From NCBI GenBank assembly GCA_964448115.1, contig CAYUVA010000042.1:1-42224 (forward strand): 42,224 bases of DNA, in the 5' to 3' direction. The first letter of the stretch is position 1; each line of letters opens with the position of its first letter. Of the stretch, positions 18,557 to 23,333 are shown one piece after another. The position numbers and the translations under genes were made by a program. The notes under the pieces were generated by a model. That model was not told the origin of the DNA, searched no databases, and was given only the letters and a program-made list of their open reading frames with translations. The DNA comes from an uncultured bacterium. GTDB lineage: Bacteria; CAYUVA01.

Positions 18557-19927
18557 TCAAAGTCCCTTGATAAGTTCTAGTATCTGGGGATCGGTCTGGA
18601 ACAAGCGGGGAAACCTGGGATGCGTGTTTTCGAGCCAATCCTTCAATGAGTTTTCTAATATGTTCAGATGCCCGTTCATAGGCTTATTGAATGGGCGCTG
18701 TTCGCTGGGATCGCTGGACAGGTCGTATATTGCCTTGGATAGTTTCTTGAGCGAGGTGGGGAGCAAATAGCCCCCTTGATTATCATACGAGTAGATGATC
18801 TTGTAACCATGTCCTCTTACGCAAAGCATTCCGGCACCGCTGTCAGAGATGATTACCCTGTCCTTGCCTTGAGCCTTGGGGGCTTTAAGGTTGAGGCTTT
18901 GAGCAGTGCTCGTACGGGATTCTATGCCCAGCATATCCAGAATGGTTGGCATTATATCCATAATACTTACAGTGAACCTGCTCACCAGGCACGGTTGCAG
19001 CCGTTTTGGATAGTAGAAAATGAGCGGTATCTTGAGCACTTCATCAAATAGGTTATTGTTATGACCCAAAGCTTGTCTCTCACCTAAACTCTCTCCGTGG
19101 TTGGCGGTTACTACTATAAGCGTGTTATCAACCATCCCTTGCGTATCAAGCTCTCGAAGCAGCCTCGCCAGGTTATGATCAAGATATGCCACATCACTAG
19201 CATAAGAGCACCTAACATCATCATAGTCGCTGCATGAGTTTATCCTGGCAGCATAAGGCTGATGGGGATCGAAGTAGTGAAGCCATAGGAAAAACGGCTT
19301 ATCTGTGTTCTTTGACTGGTATCGGTTCAGCCATCTAATCGCATTGTCGGTTACCTGGGCGGCGTTCTTTATCTTGCGGGGATCGATCCCCTCCTTGGGC
19401 TGGTTAAGCATAAGGTGCCGATTCGAATTTTTACTGGCATTGAGATGGATATTTTGCTTTTCTATTGCTTTCTTTACAGGTTTACTTATCGGTTGGTTGT
19501 AGAAATCGAAGCCCTGATTAAGTCCGTTATTGCACCTCAAGGTAAATATTGCAGTGGTTATTGCAGCAGTAGCGTATCCGTATTCATGGAGCAGCTCTGC
19601 AAGGGTGGTTGCCCGGGTATGAAGGATGCCTTTGTCCGTGGTAACCGTACTTTGTGCCGGGTAAAGCGAGGTGAAAAGCGAGACCATGGACGGCAGGGAC
19701 TGGCAGGAGGTAGTCATAGCCTCAGCATATACCACTCCGCCAACAGCTAGCTTATCCAGGGTTGGCGTCAAAGACTGGTGGCTCCCATAAGTCCCTATGA
19801 AATCAGCTCGCAAGGACTCGACGGTTACAAGGATGATATTGGGTTGCTGTTCAACTCCAATTGCTGGTGCGGCAAGGCTGAATACTGCAAAAAAGATCAT
19901 GCAACAAAGCCCCATCAGAGGCTTCAT
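18557..19927 (-). CDS. Secreted sulfatase-like hydrolase (alkaline phosphatase superfamily), non-canonical active site
   Basis: Signal peptide; PNIILVTVESLRAD, SLPSMVSLFTS, PFFLWLHYFDPHQPY, ANHGE, YDLSSDPSE. Start overlaps the stop of the upstream regulator (TAATG). Confidence 0.85.
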   Translation of the reverse strand: MKPLMGLCCMIFFAVFSLAAPAIGVEQQPNIILVTVESLRADFIGTYGSHQSLTPTLDKLAVGGVVYAEAMTTSCQSLPSMVSLFTSLYPAQSTVTTDKGILHTRATTLAELLHEYGYATAAITTAIFTLRCNNGLNQGFDFYNQPISKPVKKAIEKQNIHLNASKNSNRHLMLNQPKEGIDPRKIKNAAQVTDNAIRWLNRYQSKNTDKPFFLWLHYFDPHQPYAARINSCSDYDDVRCSYASDVAYLDHNLARLLRELDTQGMVDNTLIVVTANHGESLGERQALGHNNNLFDEVLKIPLIFYYPKRLQPCLVSRFTVSIMDIMPTILDMLGIESRTSTAQSLNLKAPKAQGKDRVIISDSGAGMLCVRGHGYKIIYSYDNQGGYLLPTSLKKLSKAIYDLSSDPSEQRPFNKPMNGHLNILENSLKDWLENTHPRFPRLFQTDPQILELIKGL

Positions 19928-21300
19928 TACTCGCTCTCCTTATATTTGTATTCGCCCAGGCGGCGGAAAAGGGTTCTAAGACTGATTCCAAGCTCCCTTG
20001 CGGTCTCATTTCTATTATTGGCGTTTCGAGCCAAGGTTGTTAGTATCGCTTGTCTTTCCAGCTCTTTTAGGCTCATGCCCTTCGGAAAGGGGAGATACTC
20101 GGTATCAGCTCCCTCCATGCGAATGTAGGAGGGCAGATCATCGAGCTTGATATCCTTCCTTGTGCTCATCACCACCAAGCCCTCCAGGAAATTCTTTAGC
20201 TCCCTGACATTCCCCGGCCAGGGATAGCGAACCAGGGCATCCAGGGCATCTTGTTCAAGATTCATCGGTCTTTTATTGTTAGCCTTGCATAGCTCATTCA
20301 GGAAATGGTCGATGAGCAAGGGGATATCCTCCTTGCGCTCCCTAAGCGGTGGCACTTGGATGGAGACCACCTTGAGGCGATAGTAAAGATCCTCCCGGAA
20401 TGTTGCGTCCTTGACTCTATCAGCCAATTCTGAGTTGGTGGCTGCAATTACCCTGGCATCGATGCGGTGAGTTCTAGTTCCTCCCACACGCTCGAACTCT
20501 TGAGCCTCAAGAAATCTCAACAGCTTGACCTGCATAGACAAGGGAAGCTCTCCGATCTCATCGAGGAACAGTGTCCCCTTGTCTGCCAGCTCGAACTTGC
20601 CCTTCTTGGCAGCGATGGCGCCGGTAAAGGCTCCCTTCTCGTGTCCAAAAAGCTCGCTTTCCACCAGTGATTCCGGTATGGCTCCGCAGTTGATGCGCAC
20701 AAACGGACCCCGCTTGCGTGGGCTTAGATTGTGGATGGCGTGTGCCACCAGTTCCTTACCGACTCCGCTCTCACCGGTTACAAGAACGCTAGCCCTTGCC
20801 GGAGCCACCTGGCGGATCTGTTGAATCACGCGCTGGATGCCATAAGAGTTGCCGATGATGTTGCCGATTCCATATCGCTGATCGAGTTGCTGTTGTAAAG
20901 CCAAGTTCTTCAGCACAAGCAATCGATGCTTGGTCAGCTTATCAATAAGGGAGCGGATCTTCTCCTTAGAGATGGGATGTTCCAGGAAATCGAAGGCACC
21001 GTTCTTTATTGCTTTTACAACTACATCGGGCGCGCCAGGCTCGGCGGTTATAACTACCTCTGTGTTAGGGTGGTTTTGCCTTATGATCTCAAGCAAGGAG
21101 AATCCGCTCATATCCTGAAGCGACACCTCGCTGAGCACCAGTTGTGCATCCTCCCTGCCAAGGTAATTCAAGGCATGTTTACCAAGAGAGAAAAGGTTAG
21201 ACTCTATGCCTAGCTCAGCAAGATACTGGCATATCCGCCTCCCATAAGTGGAGTCCTTGCTAACGATAAGAACCGTATCCACTATCTCTTGATTATGCAT
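19927..21300 (-). CDS. sigma54-dependent NtrC/AtoC-family enhancer-binding protein with atypical receiver domain
   Basis: GESGVGKE, ESELFGHEKGAFTGA, LFLDEIGE, FREDLYYRL, WPGNVREL, Fis-type HTH (TARELGISLRTLFRRL). Confidence 0.95.
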   Translation of the reverse strand: MHNQEIVDTVLIVSKDSTYGRRICQYLAELGIESNLFSLGKHALNYLGREDAQLVLSEVSLQDMSGFSLLEIIRQNHPNTEVVITAEPGAPDVVVKAIKNGAFDFLEHPISKEKIRSLIDKLTKHRLLVLKNLALQQQLDQRYGIGNIIGNSYGIQRVIQQIRQVAPARASVLVTGESGVGKELVAHAIHNLSPRKRGPFVRINCGAIPESLVESELFGHEKGAFTGAIAAKKGKFELADKGTLFLDEIGELPLSMQVKLLRFLEAQEFERVGGTRTHRIDARVIAATNSELADRVKDATFREDLYYRLKVVSIQVPPLRERKEDIPLLIDHFLNELCKANNKRPMNLEQDALDALVRYPWPGNVRELKNFLEGLVVMSTRKDIKLDDLPSYIRMEGADTEYLPFPKGMSLKELERQAILTTLARNANNRNETARELGISLRTLFRRLGEYKYKESE

Positions 21301-21415
21301 AGATATCCTTTCTTAGCATAAGAGGGGCATTCCCATCAAGGATGACTTAACTGGCAGCGGGTTGATTAAACCGAAAACTTTTATTATAGGATCGAGCAAC
21401 AAGGACGGTGATGAA

Positions 21416-21607
21416 ATGAAAGAACTGCTCATAATCATAGCTGTAATCGCCCTTTGGTTCTTAATGAACTACTTTGTGCTCCCCAAGCTGGGGATAAACA
21501 CCTGAATGCGAAACTCCTGCCGGATCGAGGCTCGATCCGATAACGAAAATCACCAGTCAAGCTCTATTAATCCACGAGATTCTTCCAAAGAAAAGGGAGA
21601 CAAGTAA
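21416..21607 (+). CDS. Small single-pass membrane protein; candidate selenoprotein (63 aa with TGA30=Sec, or 29 aa ending at 21505)
   Basis: MKELLIIIAVIALWFLMNYFVLPKLGINT-TGA-MRNSCRIEARSD...KEKGDK-TAA; AAGGA/GGTGA upstream; hairpin at 21521-21539. Confidence 0.6.
21521..21539 (+). promoter_or_regulatory. Candidate bacterial SECIS stem-loop
   Basis: Perfect inverted repeat CGGATCGA-GGC-TCGATCCG starting 15 nt after the in-frame TGA; G-containing apical loop 23 nt after the TGA. Confidence 0.5.
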
Positions 21608-21645: not shown

Positions 21646-23205
21646 CTAGGGCTGTATGACAGAAAAGGATGTACCGCTGTCCAATGAGACGAGCAGCTCC
21701 TTGTCCCCGCCTAGTGCGATCATGTCTGGATGGACTGGATGGCGGATCATCACATTCTTGTCCTTGAAGATGCGAAAGGTGAAATTATCAGAGTCGAAAC
21801 GCCGGGTTATCTTGCGCTTCCTGAAGGTCTCAGCAGCCAACGAGATAAGGATAGTTCTTTGCCTTGGCAAAACGAGAAAGCCTTGTATTGGCAAAGAAAG
21901 CATCGGATGTTGGAACAACCTTGGCTGCAAGGTATCGCCGCTTCTATGATATAAGCCAGCTCCCGATGCTATGAAGGTCATGTTAAGCTCGGAAACTACG
22001 CTTATCTTGGAAACCAATCCTTGTATCCTGGGACGGGCATAGGTCAATCCCATGTCCTTGCTTTCCAAGATCCCTAGTCCGAATACTCCGAGCAGAATAT
22101 GACTGCAATCATATTCATCAACCTCAAAGGCACTGGGGATGAGATCGGGGAGGTCTGGATCGTGGTTAGTGCCTTGTGCTTTTGAACCCAAGAAGCGCCA
22201 GGGAACGGCGGAGAATAGCGGTTTATATATGATACCCTTTTCAGTTGCTGCCATGATTTTAGGGCTTTGATTATCTTTGCATAACCTCAAGCCGATTATG
22301 AAAGAGCAGTTTGTGTCCTCAAGGATAGTTCCCTTGTCTGCTAAGCTAAGTCGGTAAAGCCCGGCTCCGCTGGTGGCAACTAGTTGATGCTCGGCATCCA
22401 TGGATAGAAGATCGCTCAGCGGCGCAGGAAAGCTGATCGGACTATCTTGCTGCCAGTTTTGCTCACCGATGTTGTATTGATGAAGCTCCCCTGCCCCGGT
22501 GCCGATCAATAGCCGATCGCTATCATAAGGGATAAATGCCATCGATGTTATCTTGGTTTGGGAGATCGCCCTTTGCATCTTTATCTGCTTGGTGCCGAAG
22601 ATTATCCCCACCGATATCACGGTTAGCCCAAGCCCATACAGGGCTATCTTGCGCGCCGGCCACCAGGGGGTCATAAAACCGAACCCGAATCGGGCTGCTA
22701 AAAAGGGGCTTAACAGAAAAAGAGCTAAGAATCCGAGTTTACCAGACCAGGCAGCAACCAGGAATGTTGCCAGCAAGGCTAGAATGGAGCCGAACAAGGT
22801 TCGCCAGAAGGAGCCAACATAGCCGAGCTTTCGAGCTTTGATGTACATGGAGACACTCGAACCAAGGGCAAAAAGAGCCGGTCCCACTCGCCAGACGAAT
22901 ACTGAAAAAAGTATCGAAAATGAGCTATCCACCGACCAGTTGGTCCGAGCTGCGAAGTATGCCCCGATGCGAGAGGTGATTAAGGTCAACAGAACGCCTA
23001 TTACACCGCCAATGACGCTAGCCTTGAACAGCTTGGCTACATCAACATTTACCAGGCGATCGCTTCCCGGCGGCAGCATAAGCTCAAGACCGATGCCACA
23101 CTTGGAGCAGAAATAGGCATAAGGACTATTAGTGGCACCACAGCTTTGGCAGATGACCTCCTCGGGCTCGGTTTCCTGGCTGTTTATTTTTTCATTCTCA
23201 CCCAT
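21646..23205 (-). CDS. Membrane protein: N-terminal zinc ribbon, about 5 TM helices, C-terminal BNR/beta-propeller-like domain
   Basis: CQSCG...CSKCG; hydrophobic segments; SKDMGLTY and SLDSGTSF Asp-box-like motifs. Likely start ATG 23205. Confidence 0.75.
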   Translation of the reverse strand: MGENEKINSQETEPEEVICQSCGATNSPYAYFCSKCGIGLELMLPPGSDRLVNVDVAKLFKASVIGGVIGVLLTLITSRIGAYFAARTNWSVDSSFSILFSVFVWRVGPALFALGSSVSMYIKARKLGYVGSFWRTLFGSILALLATFLVAAWSGKLGFLALFLLSPFLAARFGFGFMTPWWPARKIALYGLGLTVISVGIIFGTKQIKMQRAISQTKITSMAFIPYDSDRLLIGTGAGELHQYNIGEQNWQQDSPISFPAPLSDLLSMDAEHQLVATSGAGLYRLSLADKGTILEDTNCSFIIGLRLCKDNQSPKIMAATEKGIIYKPLFSAVPWRFLGSKAQGTNHDPDLPDLIPSAFEVDEYDCSHILLGVFGLGILESKDMGLTYARPRIQGLVSKISVVSELNMTFIASGAGLYHRSGDTLQPRLFQHPMLSLPIQGFLVLPRQRTILISLAAETFRKRKITRRFDSDNFTFRIFKDKNVMIRHPVHPDMIALGGDKELLVSLDSGTSFSVIQP

Positions 23206-23333
23206 GTGCAAACCAAGTTTAAACTACTATATGAGCACTAAATAAGCCAACCCGGACGATGAATTCATTCGTGTTTCCTTTTTTACAACTAGACTTTGCT
23301 TTAGCCTGATGATAATATAATTGGTGGAAGGAG

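Follow-up and report, generated by a model that had tools for sequence, protein, structure and literature searches.

The window, as we call the whole 42,224-nt stretch of DNA analysed here, holds a short plus-strand reading frame that raises a single question: does the TGA at 21503-21505 end a 29-residue membrane peptide, or does it encode selenocysteine (Sec) in a longer protein? The frame opens at an ATG (21416-21418), reads MKELLIIIAVIALWFLMNYFVLPKLGINT as far as the TGA, and then stays open for 33 further codons (MRNSCRIE...KEKGDK) before reaching a TAA at 21605-21607. A preliminary description of the locus had put forward a selenoprotein, and its coordinates for the ATG, the transmembrane helix, the TGA, the reopened frame and the TAA were all borne out in the sequence, where a hairpin is also present at 21521-21539. 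Judging from comparison with relatives, the UGA at 21503-21505 very probably encodes selenocysteine. We also hold, with good confidence, that the locus as a whole is best explained as a genuine monocistronic gene whose product is a selenoprotein of 63 residues with a single membrane pass.

The full ORF (21416-21607, + strand) comprises 63 codons, with Sec as codon 30, plus the TAA, which its sequence and translation identify as the true stop codon. A profile of the family described below matches the window at 21416-21571 (E = 3.7e-20, with one TGA inside the match), and the window genome carries a single copy of the gene. A putative ribosome-binding region at 21401-21411 contains AAGGA (21401-21405) and GGTGA (21407-21411), and a GGAG- or AGGAG-type sequence stands 5′ of the start codon in most homologous loci. 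The ATG-AAA-TGA minicistron (21411-21419) that had been described as part of the feature is present, yet a similar arrangement was seen in one of 105 loci, the window itself; we therefore treated it as chance and dropped it. Upstream lies the gene of a sigma-54 response regulator (19927-21300, − strand), its start facing the selenoprotein gene. Downstream, a convergent gene (21646-23211, − strand), its end facing the selenoprotein gene, encodes a 521-aa membrane protein that carries a zinc ribbon at its N-terminus and has several hydrophobic stretches; for it, no Pfam family was found at E ≤ 1e-5 and NCBIfam gave a chance-level match alone (E 6e-4). Neither an intrinsic terminator nor a sigma-70 promoter was found on the + strand between 21200 and 21750. 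Upstream of the gene, no sigma-54 promoter (GG-N10-GC, at least 9 of 11 consensus matches) was found in any of 27 loci checked, and a TGGCAG...TTGA in the window is spaced one base short for such a promoter.

Homologues that keep TGA, and never show TAA or TAG, had been named as support for a Sec codon. A read-through search of 60 unrelated genomes yielded four relatives, each with TGA at the corresponding column. Scanning one genome per species gave 22 family loci and scanning metagenomes gave 54, and a family-profile search of 400 other genomes gave 47 matches. TGA followed directly after ...LPxxGxxT in 105 of the 105 loci read and TAA or TAG never did (27 + 54 + 24 more loci, giving 99 distinct products and 97 complete distinct products), with the caveat that the loci are kin to one another and such counts overstate independence. 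Since the peptide patterns used in the collection scans end before the Sec codon, the type of stop could not have been selected for. We ruled out an altered genetic code as the cause of the in-frame TGA: the 24 long ORFs of the window stop at TGA (13), TAG (7) or TAA (4), so TGA is an ordinary stop in this genome too.

To judge by how it changes among close relatives, the stretch 3′ of the UGA is evolving as coding sequence. Across 14 close pairs, substitutions at the three codon positions numbered 52/41/77 on the 3′ side of the UGA, compared with 73/32/145 on its 5′ side; in the four closest gapped pairs the gaps were multiples of three, and the DNA past the second stop diverged faster, with gaps of arbitrary length. 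The downstream Cys was likewise conserved as proposed, being kept in 95 of the 97 complete distinct products: 87 have U-x4-C and in eight the Cys is spaced differently, whereas the other two lack it. In a 32-sequence alignment (A5), the column of Cys35 (codon TGC, 21518-21520), the partner of Sec30 in U-x4-C, is invariant and the Sec/Cys column nearly so. The two products without Cys (L096:2588 and L107:2588) come from the window's own subgroup; both loci keep the UGA and the hairpin, and Asn or Glu replaces the partner Cys. The U/C pair is thus not obligatory, and the putative Sec of these two proteins must act alone or pair between chains.

Cysteine at codon 30 in homologues, another form of support anticipated at the outset, was found in 106 of 209 database proteins, all reading on past the column and 98 of them as C-x4-C; these Cys forms are known here from protein entries. 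One of them (P0003) is recorded in one source as a gene of 225 nt, complete from start codon to stop codon. The same column holds W in 34 entries, G in three, R in three, S in two and L in one, and a further 51 of the 209 proteins stop at the T before the UGA, as gene calls cut at the stop. We rejected W and G as real substitutions on the comparison of P0063 with its close relatives L048 and L103: P0063 has W wherever their DNA has TGA, including at two positions in a spurious N-terminal extension, and the W and G entries are therefore gene-calling artefacts, produced by decoding TGA as Trp or Gly. More widely, a profile search returned 1863 clusters at 50% identity (E ≤ 0.001), and a query of the ESM Atlas with the Cys form P0003 gave as its best cluster (0.87) an unnamed 56-aa one, which we take as a lead only. 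Another protein hit by the profile, P0180 (592 aa), consists of eight tandem units of about 70 residues that contain VVLPKMGVRTK, and in each copy the match spans 10 residues; this looks like chance, and we do not count it as a relative.

A Sec codon calls for the machinery to read it, and the absence of selABCD from the genome had been named as grounds for refuting the proposal. The window genome contains selB (388 bits), selA (515 bits), selD (326 bits) and tRNA-Sec (79 bits), all over their cut-offs. Its selD (G000:C10:54678, locus L060) itself has an in-frame TGA, in ...SRAAG-U-ASK..., so that selenophosphate synthetase is itself a selenoprotein here. Among the 47 profile matches in the 400 other genomes, 44 have the TGA inside, two cover residues 1-29 alone and one is a weak 16-residue match; the last lies in a genome without selB (G162), ends in TAA and was taken as false. 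All 46 credible holders of the family have selB at E ≤ 1e-86, compared with 176 of 401 genomes overall with selB over the cut-off, a contrast that overstates independence, as the sampled genomes are related to varying degrees. Conversely, the family was found in 46 of the 175 other genomes of the 400-genome sample that have selB over the cut-off.

The remaining requirement for Sec insertion is a SECIS element, and the hairpin at 21521-21539 is our candidate, on its sequence, its fold and the same hairpin position in the window's subgroup. Its 8-bp stem is formed by CGGATCGA (21521-21528) and TCGATCCG (21532-21539) around a GGC loop (21529-21531); as had been reported, it starts 15 nt past the TGA and its loop starts 23 nt past it. 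The 76-nt fold of the window is no better than that of shuffled sequence (z = −0.80), and the significance of the hairpin consequently comes from its conservation in relatives, not from its own fold. By criteria set after the first sequences had been seen (a stem of 5 bp or more and a GG/GU loop 12-24 nt past the UGA), a hairpin was present in 26 of 27 loci, compared with 4.5% of 5885 other TGA sites in the same loci. In the majority form, the stem begins about 10 nt past the UGA and the loop, AGGU, GGGU or AGUUG, lies 16 nt past it. A covariance model of this form (12 sequences) gave hits in 46 of 80 sources; every hit fell at the UGA, with none at any other place in 404 kb, and the window was not hit.

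Covariation also points to a conserved structure. In the model alignment, 89.8% of cells pair compared with 80.0% in shuffles and 34-64% in slid controls, and double-change cells number 28 against 8.6 in shuffles (0 of 500 shuffles reach 28), with compensatory changes in four of the seven stem pairs; this alignment was fitted to the model, which favours the structure. The conservation of the hairpin that the preliminary description had looked for is thus present, with a G-rich loop and with covariation. The window's subgroup (L040, L072, L092, L096, L107) has a conserved hairpin of its own, with a GGA loop 23 nt past the UGA (GGC in the window), and L092 shows a G:C to U:A compensatory change. 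The hairpin persists in loci where no same-strand gene follows, and no T-run terminator was found. An Rfam search returned noise alone (snoRNA models at E 0.36-1.5). In the same genome, the best hairpin of selD lies further from its UGA than that of the window gene and looks different.

What kind of protein would read-through produce? Family products are 50-63 residues long. AlphaFold2, given the 32-sequence alignment, models a helix over residues 2-24, with mean pLDDT of 94 for residues 1-10 and 91 for residues 11-20; this helix is the one confident element, and the remainder is low-confidence coil. In the window, the predicted transmembrane helix is encoded by 21419-21487. A conserved interfacial motif, LPKLGINT (residues 22-29, 21479-21502), comes next, and its L22, P23, G26 and T29 are invariant in A5. 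The Sec/Cys pair sits just after the helix, and the tail beyond it is weakly constrained and predicted to be disordered. Lys and Arg together average 2.6 over the 20 residues counted from the LP motif, compared with 0.5 over the first five residues, a charge balance that suggests, as a leaning rather than decisively, that the Sec/Cys tail lies on the cytoplasmic face.

No thioredoxin, peroxiredoxin or ECF sigma gene adjoins the selenoprotein gene in the window, whose neighbours give no functional clue; our functional reading is borrowed from relatives. Overall, the neighbourhood of the family is heterogeneous, with thioredoxin recurring. In L011 and L121, the frame past the UGA runs into a thioredoxin domain whose first ATG, GTG or TTG is codon 35, already inside the fold, so that this domain can only arise by reading the UGA; L141 also has a thioredoxin domain in frame, and P0202 is a Cys form fused to PF00085. 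A word-indexed search for fused or longer forms returned P0202 itself and one N-terminally over-extended call, and nothing else. Counting genes fused in frame or lying within about 1.4 kb on the same strand, thioredoxin accompanies the family in 9 of 28 diverse genomes. Five of those nine genomes have one to four PF00085 genes each, and the adjacent one is the best-scoring in four of the five and the sole one in G297. An AhpC/TSA-redoxin gene adjoins in L125 and L137, and rubrerythrin in L146.

Of 81 loci, 28 have an ECF sigma gene directly behind the selenoprotein gene, and 22 have an RsrA-like zf-HC2 anti-sigma gene there. One clade has a fixed order of HybA-like iron-sulfur protein, 157-aa membrane protein, selenoprotein, ECF sigma and RsrA-like anti-sigma; in 20-21 of the 81 loci, the genes of a HybA/HmcB/DsrO-like 4x[4Fe-4S] protein and of the 157-aa four-helix membrane protein stand directly upstream on the same strand. 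In L037 (2398-3265) and 27 other loci, the ECF sigma gene starts 34 nt past the Sec codon, right behind the hairpin, and overlaps the tail in another frame; in this clade about 9 nt separate the AGGU of the SECIS loop from the sigma ATG. The 157-aa protein (pair at L037:768-2244) has no Pfam or NCBIfam match and carries the motif GFGQMPIFKRYYIADIPG; used as a query, it was not found in the window genome. Upstream of the iron-sulfur/157-aa pair there is an FdhD gene in L038, and in L037 an FdhD ORF is cut by the locus edge. In 12 loci (e.g., L044:3650-3865), the gene directly upstream on the same strand encodes a zinc-ribbon protein of the FmdB family (TIGR02605); it has about 72 residues, and its tail, rich in Ser, Gly and Cys, ends in GGF[ST].

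These observations can be assembled into a model. Translation would start at ATG 21416; at UGA 21503, the hairpin at 21521-21539 would recruit SelB carrying Sec-tRNA(Sec), selenocysteine would be inserted, and translation would end at TAA 21605. The predicted product would consist of an N-terminal transmembrane helix (residues 2-24), an LPKLGxxT interfacial motif, Sec30-x4-Cys35 and a disordered hydrophilic tail. Sec30 and Cys35 would form a redox couple, passing from selenol/thiol to selenenylsulfide and held at the membrane surface, and thioredoxin would re-reduce it. The redox or metal-binding nature of the protein is something we infer; the fusions and neighbours favour thiol/selenol redox with thioredoxin. 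It is from the thioredoxin fusions and adjacency, together with the ECF sigma and RsrA-like neighbours, that we read Sec30/Cys35 as a thioredoxin-recycled selenol/thiol couple, an assignment towards which we lean. A specific role in oxidative stress is a more tentative proposal: the protein might serve in defence against thiol-oxidative or peroxide stress, or in redox sensing, at the membrane.

The main rival to this redox model concerns function and leaves the selenoprotein in place: at the membrane surface, the Sec/Cys pair might be a site that binds or senses soft metals or metalloids (Hg, Cu, Cd, Zn, As), for handover to transporters or as a tethered sensor, with no redox cycling. PMC13188914 lists several metal-handling selenoproteins with Sec/Cys motifs. 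Among the family's neighbours are ArsR-family HTH genes directly upstream in L131, L132, L136 and L140, a CopZ-like HMA protein directly upstream and an outer-membrane efflux gene downstream of L049, two Metal_resist genes near L040, a P-type ATPase and a DtxR/FeoB block near L037, L038 and L042, and ZnuA following L147. Each such neighbour, however, occurs in few loci and the metals differ, whereas thioredoxin fusion or adjacency is more frequent (9 of 28 diverse genomes) and includes in-frame fusions; ArsR-family regulators and RsrA-like anti-sigma factors, moreover, also respond to thiol oxidation. We judge metal binding unlikely. In another reading, the protein might assist a membrane redox complex as a small accessory subunit, or might modulate a signalling protein such as the adjacent sigma-54 response regulator system or an ECF sigma/anti-sigma pair, with Sec as the sensing residue. 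The gene follows the HybA/HmcB/DsrO-like and 157-aa proteins in 20-21 of 81 loci, precedes the ECF sigma gene in 28, and adjoins sigma-54 response regulators in seven, the window included. Yet each of these contexts belongs to a single clade, the query with the 157-aa partner found nothing in the window genome, the 27 loci checked have no upstream sigma-54 promoter, and the window's regulator is divergently transcribed, so that its proximity is just that; this role appears quite unlikely.

Two further alternatives bear on the UGA itself. If it were an ordinary stop, the 29-residue membrane peptide would be the functional product and the hairpin a stabiliser, a terminator or a translational element for the neighbours. 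Bacterial membrane peptides of about 30 residues are common (e.g., one of 27 residues described in PMC7549839), the tail is weakly conserved and disordered, the AGGU loop about 9 nt before the ECF sigma ATG in 28 loci could be the ribosome-binding site of that gene, and TGA ends more of the window's 24 long ORFs (13) than any other stop. Set against this are the TGA of all 105 loci, with TAA and TAG never seen, the 106 database relatives with Cys in the column that read on through C-x4-C, and the invariance in A5 of the Cys five residues past Sec. The confinement of the family to selB-positive genomes (46 of 46), the L011 thioredoxin domain that has no start codon of its own, and the persistence of the hairpin where no same-strand gene follows and no T-run terminator was found likewise argue for read-through, and we regard a functional 29-residue peptide as exceedingly improbable. 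Alternatively, the UGA could be a selenium- or redox-dependent switch, with read-through to a 50-63-residue selenoprotein where there is Sec-tRNA(Sec) and release of a 29-residue membrane peptide where there is none, a choice that in the ECF clade would also set translation of the sigma factor. We find such a switch very doubtful; were it real, a thiol-stress regulon would be coupled to selenium status in the ECF sigma clade.

Does a membrane selenoprotein of this kind correspond to anything already described? The preliminary description could not name the family, and indeed no Pfam or NCBIfam model matches it: the window protein hit no Pfam family at E ≤ 10, and with NCBIfam 20.0 the window protein and 34 family members gave weak membrane-helix noise alone (best E 0.014). 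Table 1 of the May 2026 review PMC13188914, with its 119 families, does not include it and holds no single-pass micro-protein and no U-x4-C motif. The parts of PMC1976440 and of the Haft and Gwadz preprint within the literature surveyed contain no description of the family, and a full-text literature search found none; the family may be named in Haft and Tolstoy 2025 or in supplementary lists, which lie outside the reach of that search. We regard it as a genuine, widespread selenoprotein family, uncatalogued in the sources searched. The mechanism of Sec insertion is the known one; what is new is the kind of protein it serves. As in SelB/SECIS genes of the E. coli fdhF type, there is an in-frame UGA followed by a short hairpin within the ORF with a G in the apical loop, along with Cys homologues at the Sec column, a nearby Cys partner and selA, selB, selD and tRNA-Sec in the genome. 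The hairpin of most relatives (stem about 10 nt and AGGU-type loop 16 nt past the UGA) is close to the minimal fdhF element, whereas the window loop lies 23 nt past the UGA.

The nearest motif in print is that of TsoA (NF045695, LULAxC), where Sec is likewise followed by Leu and, a few residues on, by Cys (U-L-A-x-C compared with U-[LM]-x-x-x-C). The spacing is off by one residue, the TsoA model spans 144 positions, and NF045695 (cut-off 170 bits) found no match in the window genome at E ≤ 10 and none among the 34 members at E ≤ 1, so we do not identify the family with TsoA. TsoA and other new families are reportedly described by Haft and Tolstoy. In architecture alone, the protein resembles SELENOK and SELENOS, small proteins whose single membrane helix is N-terminal and whose Sec lies in a disordered hydrophilic tail; their reduction by the thioredoxin system has been reported. 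Their Sec, however, is near the C-terminus and not directly after the helix, they reside in the eukaryotic ER membrane and use a 3′-UTR SECIS, and P0001 has no Pfam match at E ≤ 10 that would indicate homology. Sec peroxiredoxins and thioredoxin-fold thiol peroxidases share the proposed thioredoxin-recycled selenol/thiol couple, and trxA, AhpC/TSA-redoxin and rubrerythrin are neighbours of the family in some genomes; unlike these enzymes, the family lacks both the thioredoxin and the peroxiredoxin fold, and a six-residue loop is all the active-site architecture it has, so that peroxidase activity would be purely hypothetical. It also differs from the redox selenoprotein families with UxxC or CxxU (PMC13188914, Table 1) in its U-x4-C motif, its lack of a thioredoxin fold and its 50-63-residue single-pass form.

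If confirmed, the family would add a very small and very common member to the known selenoproteins, and a bacterial counterpart, in architecture alone, of the eukaryotic membrane selenoproteins, one in which a very reactive selenol would sit right at the surface of the membrane. That the main thioredoxin gene is repeatedly fused to the family's gene or lies beside it suggests a membrane client of thioredoxin that has gone unrecognised. Gene callers stop at codon 29 or skip the gene, and some pipelines read the UGA as Trp or Gly, so the selenoproteomes of anaerobes are undercounted. In public protein collections, TGA has been read as Trp, with W at the Sec column, in P0063, P0080, P0083 and P0152, and the long N-terminal extensions of the last three resemble that of P0063, judged from the protein alone. 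Three further entries (P0002, P0088 and P0170) carry G at the Sec column, as they would under a code in which TGA is Gly.
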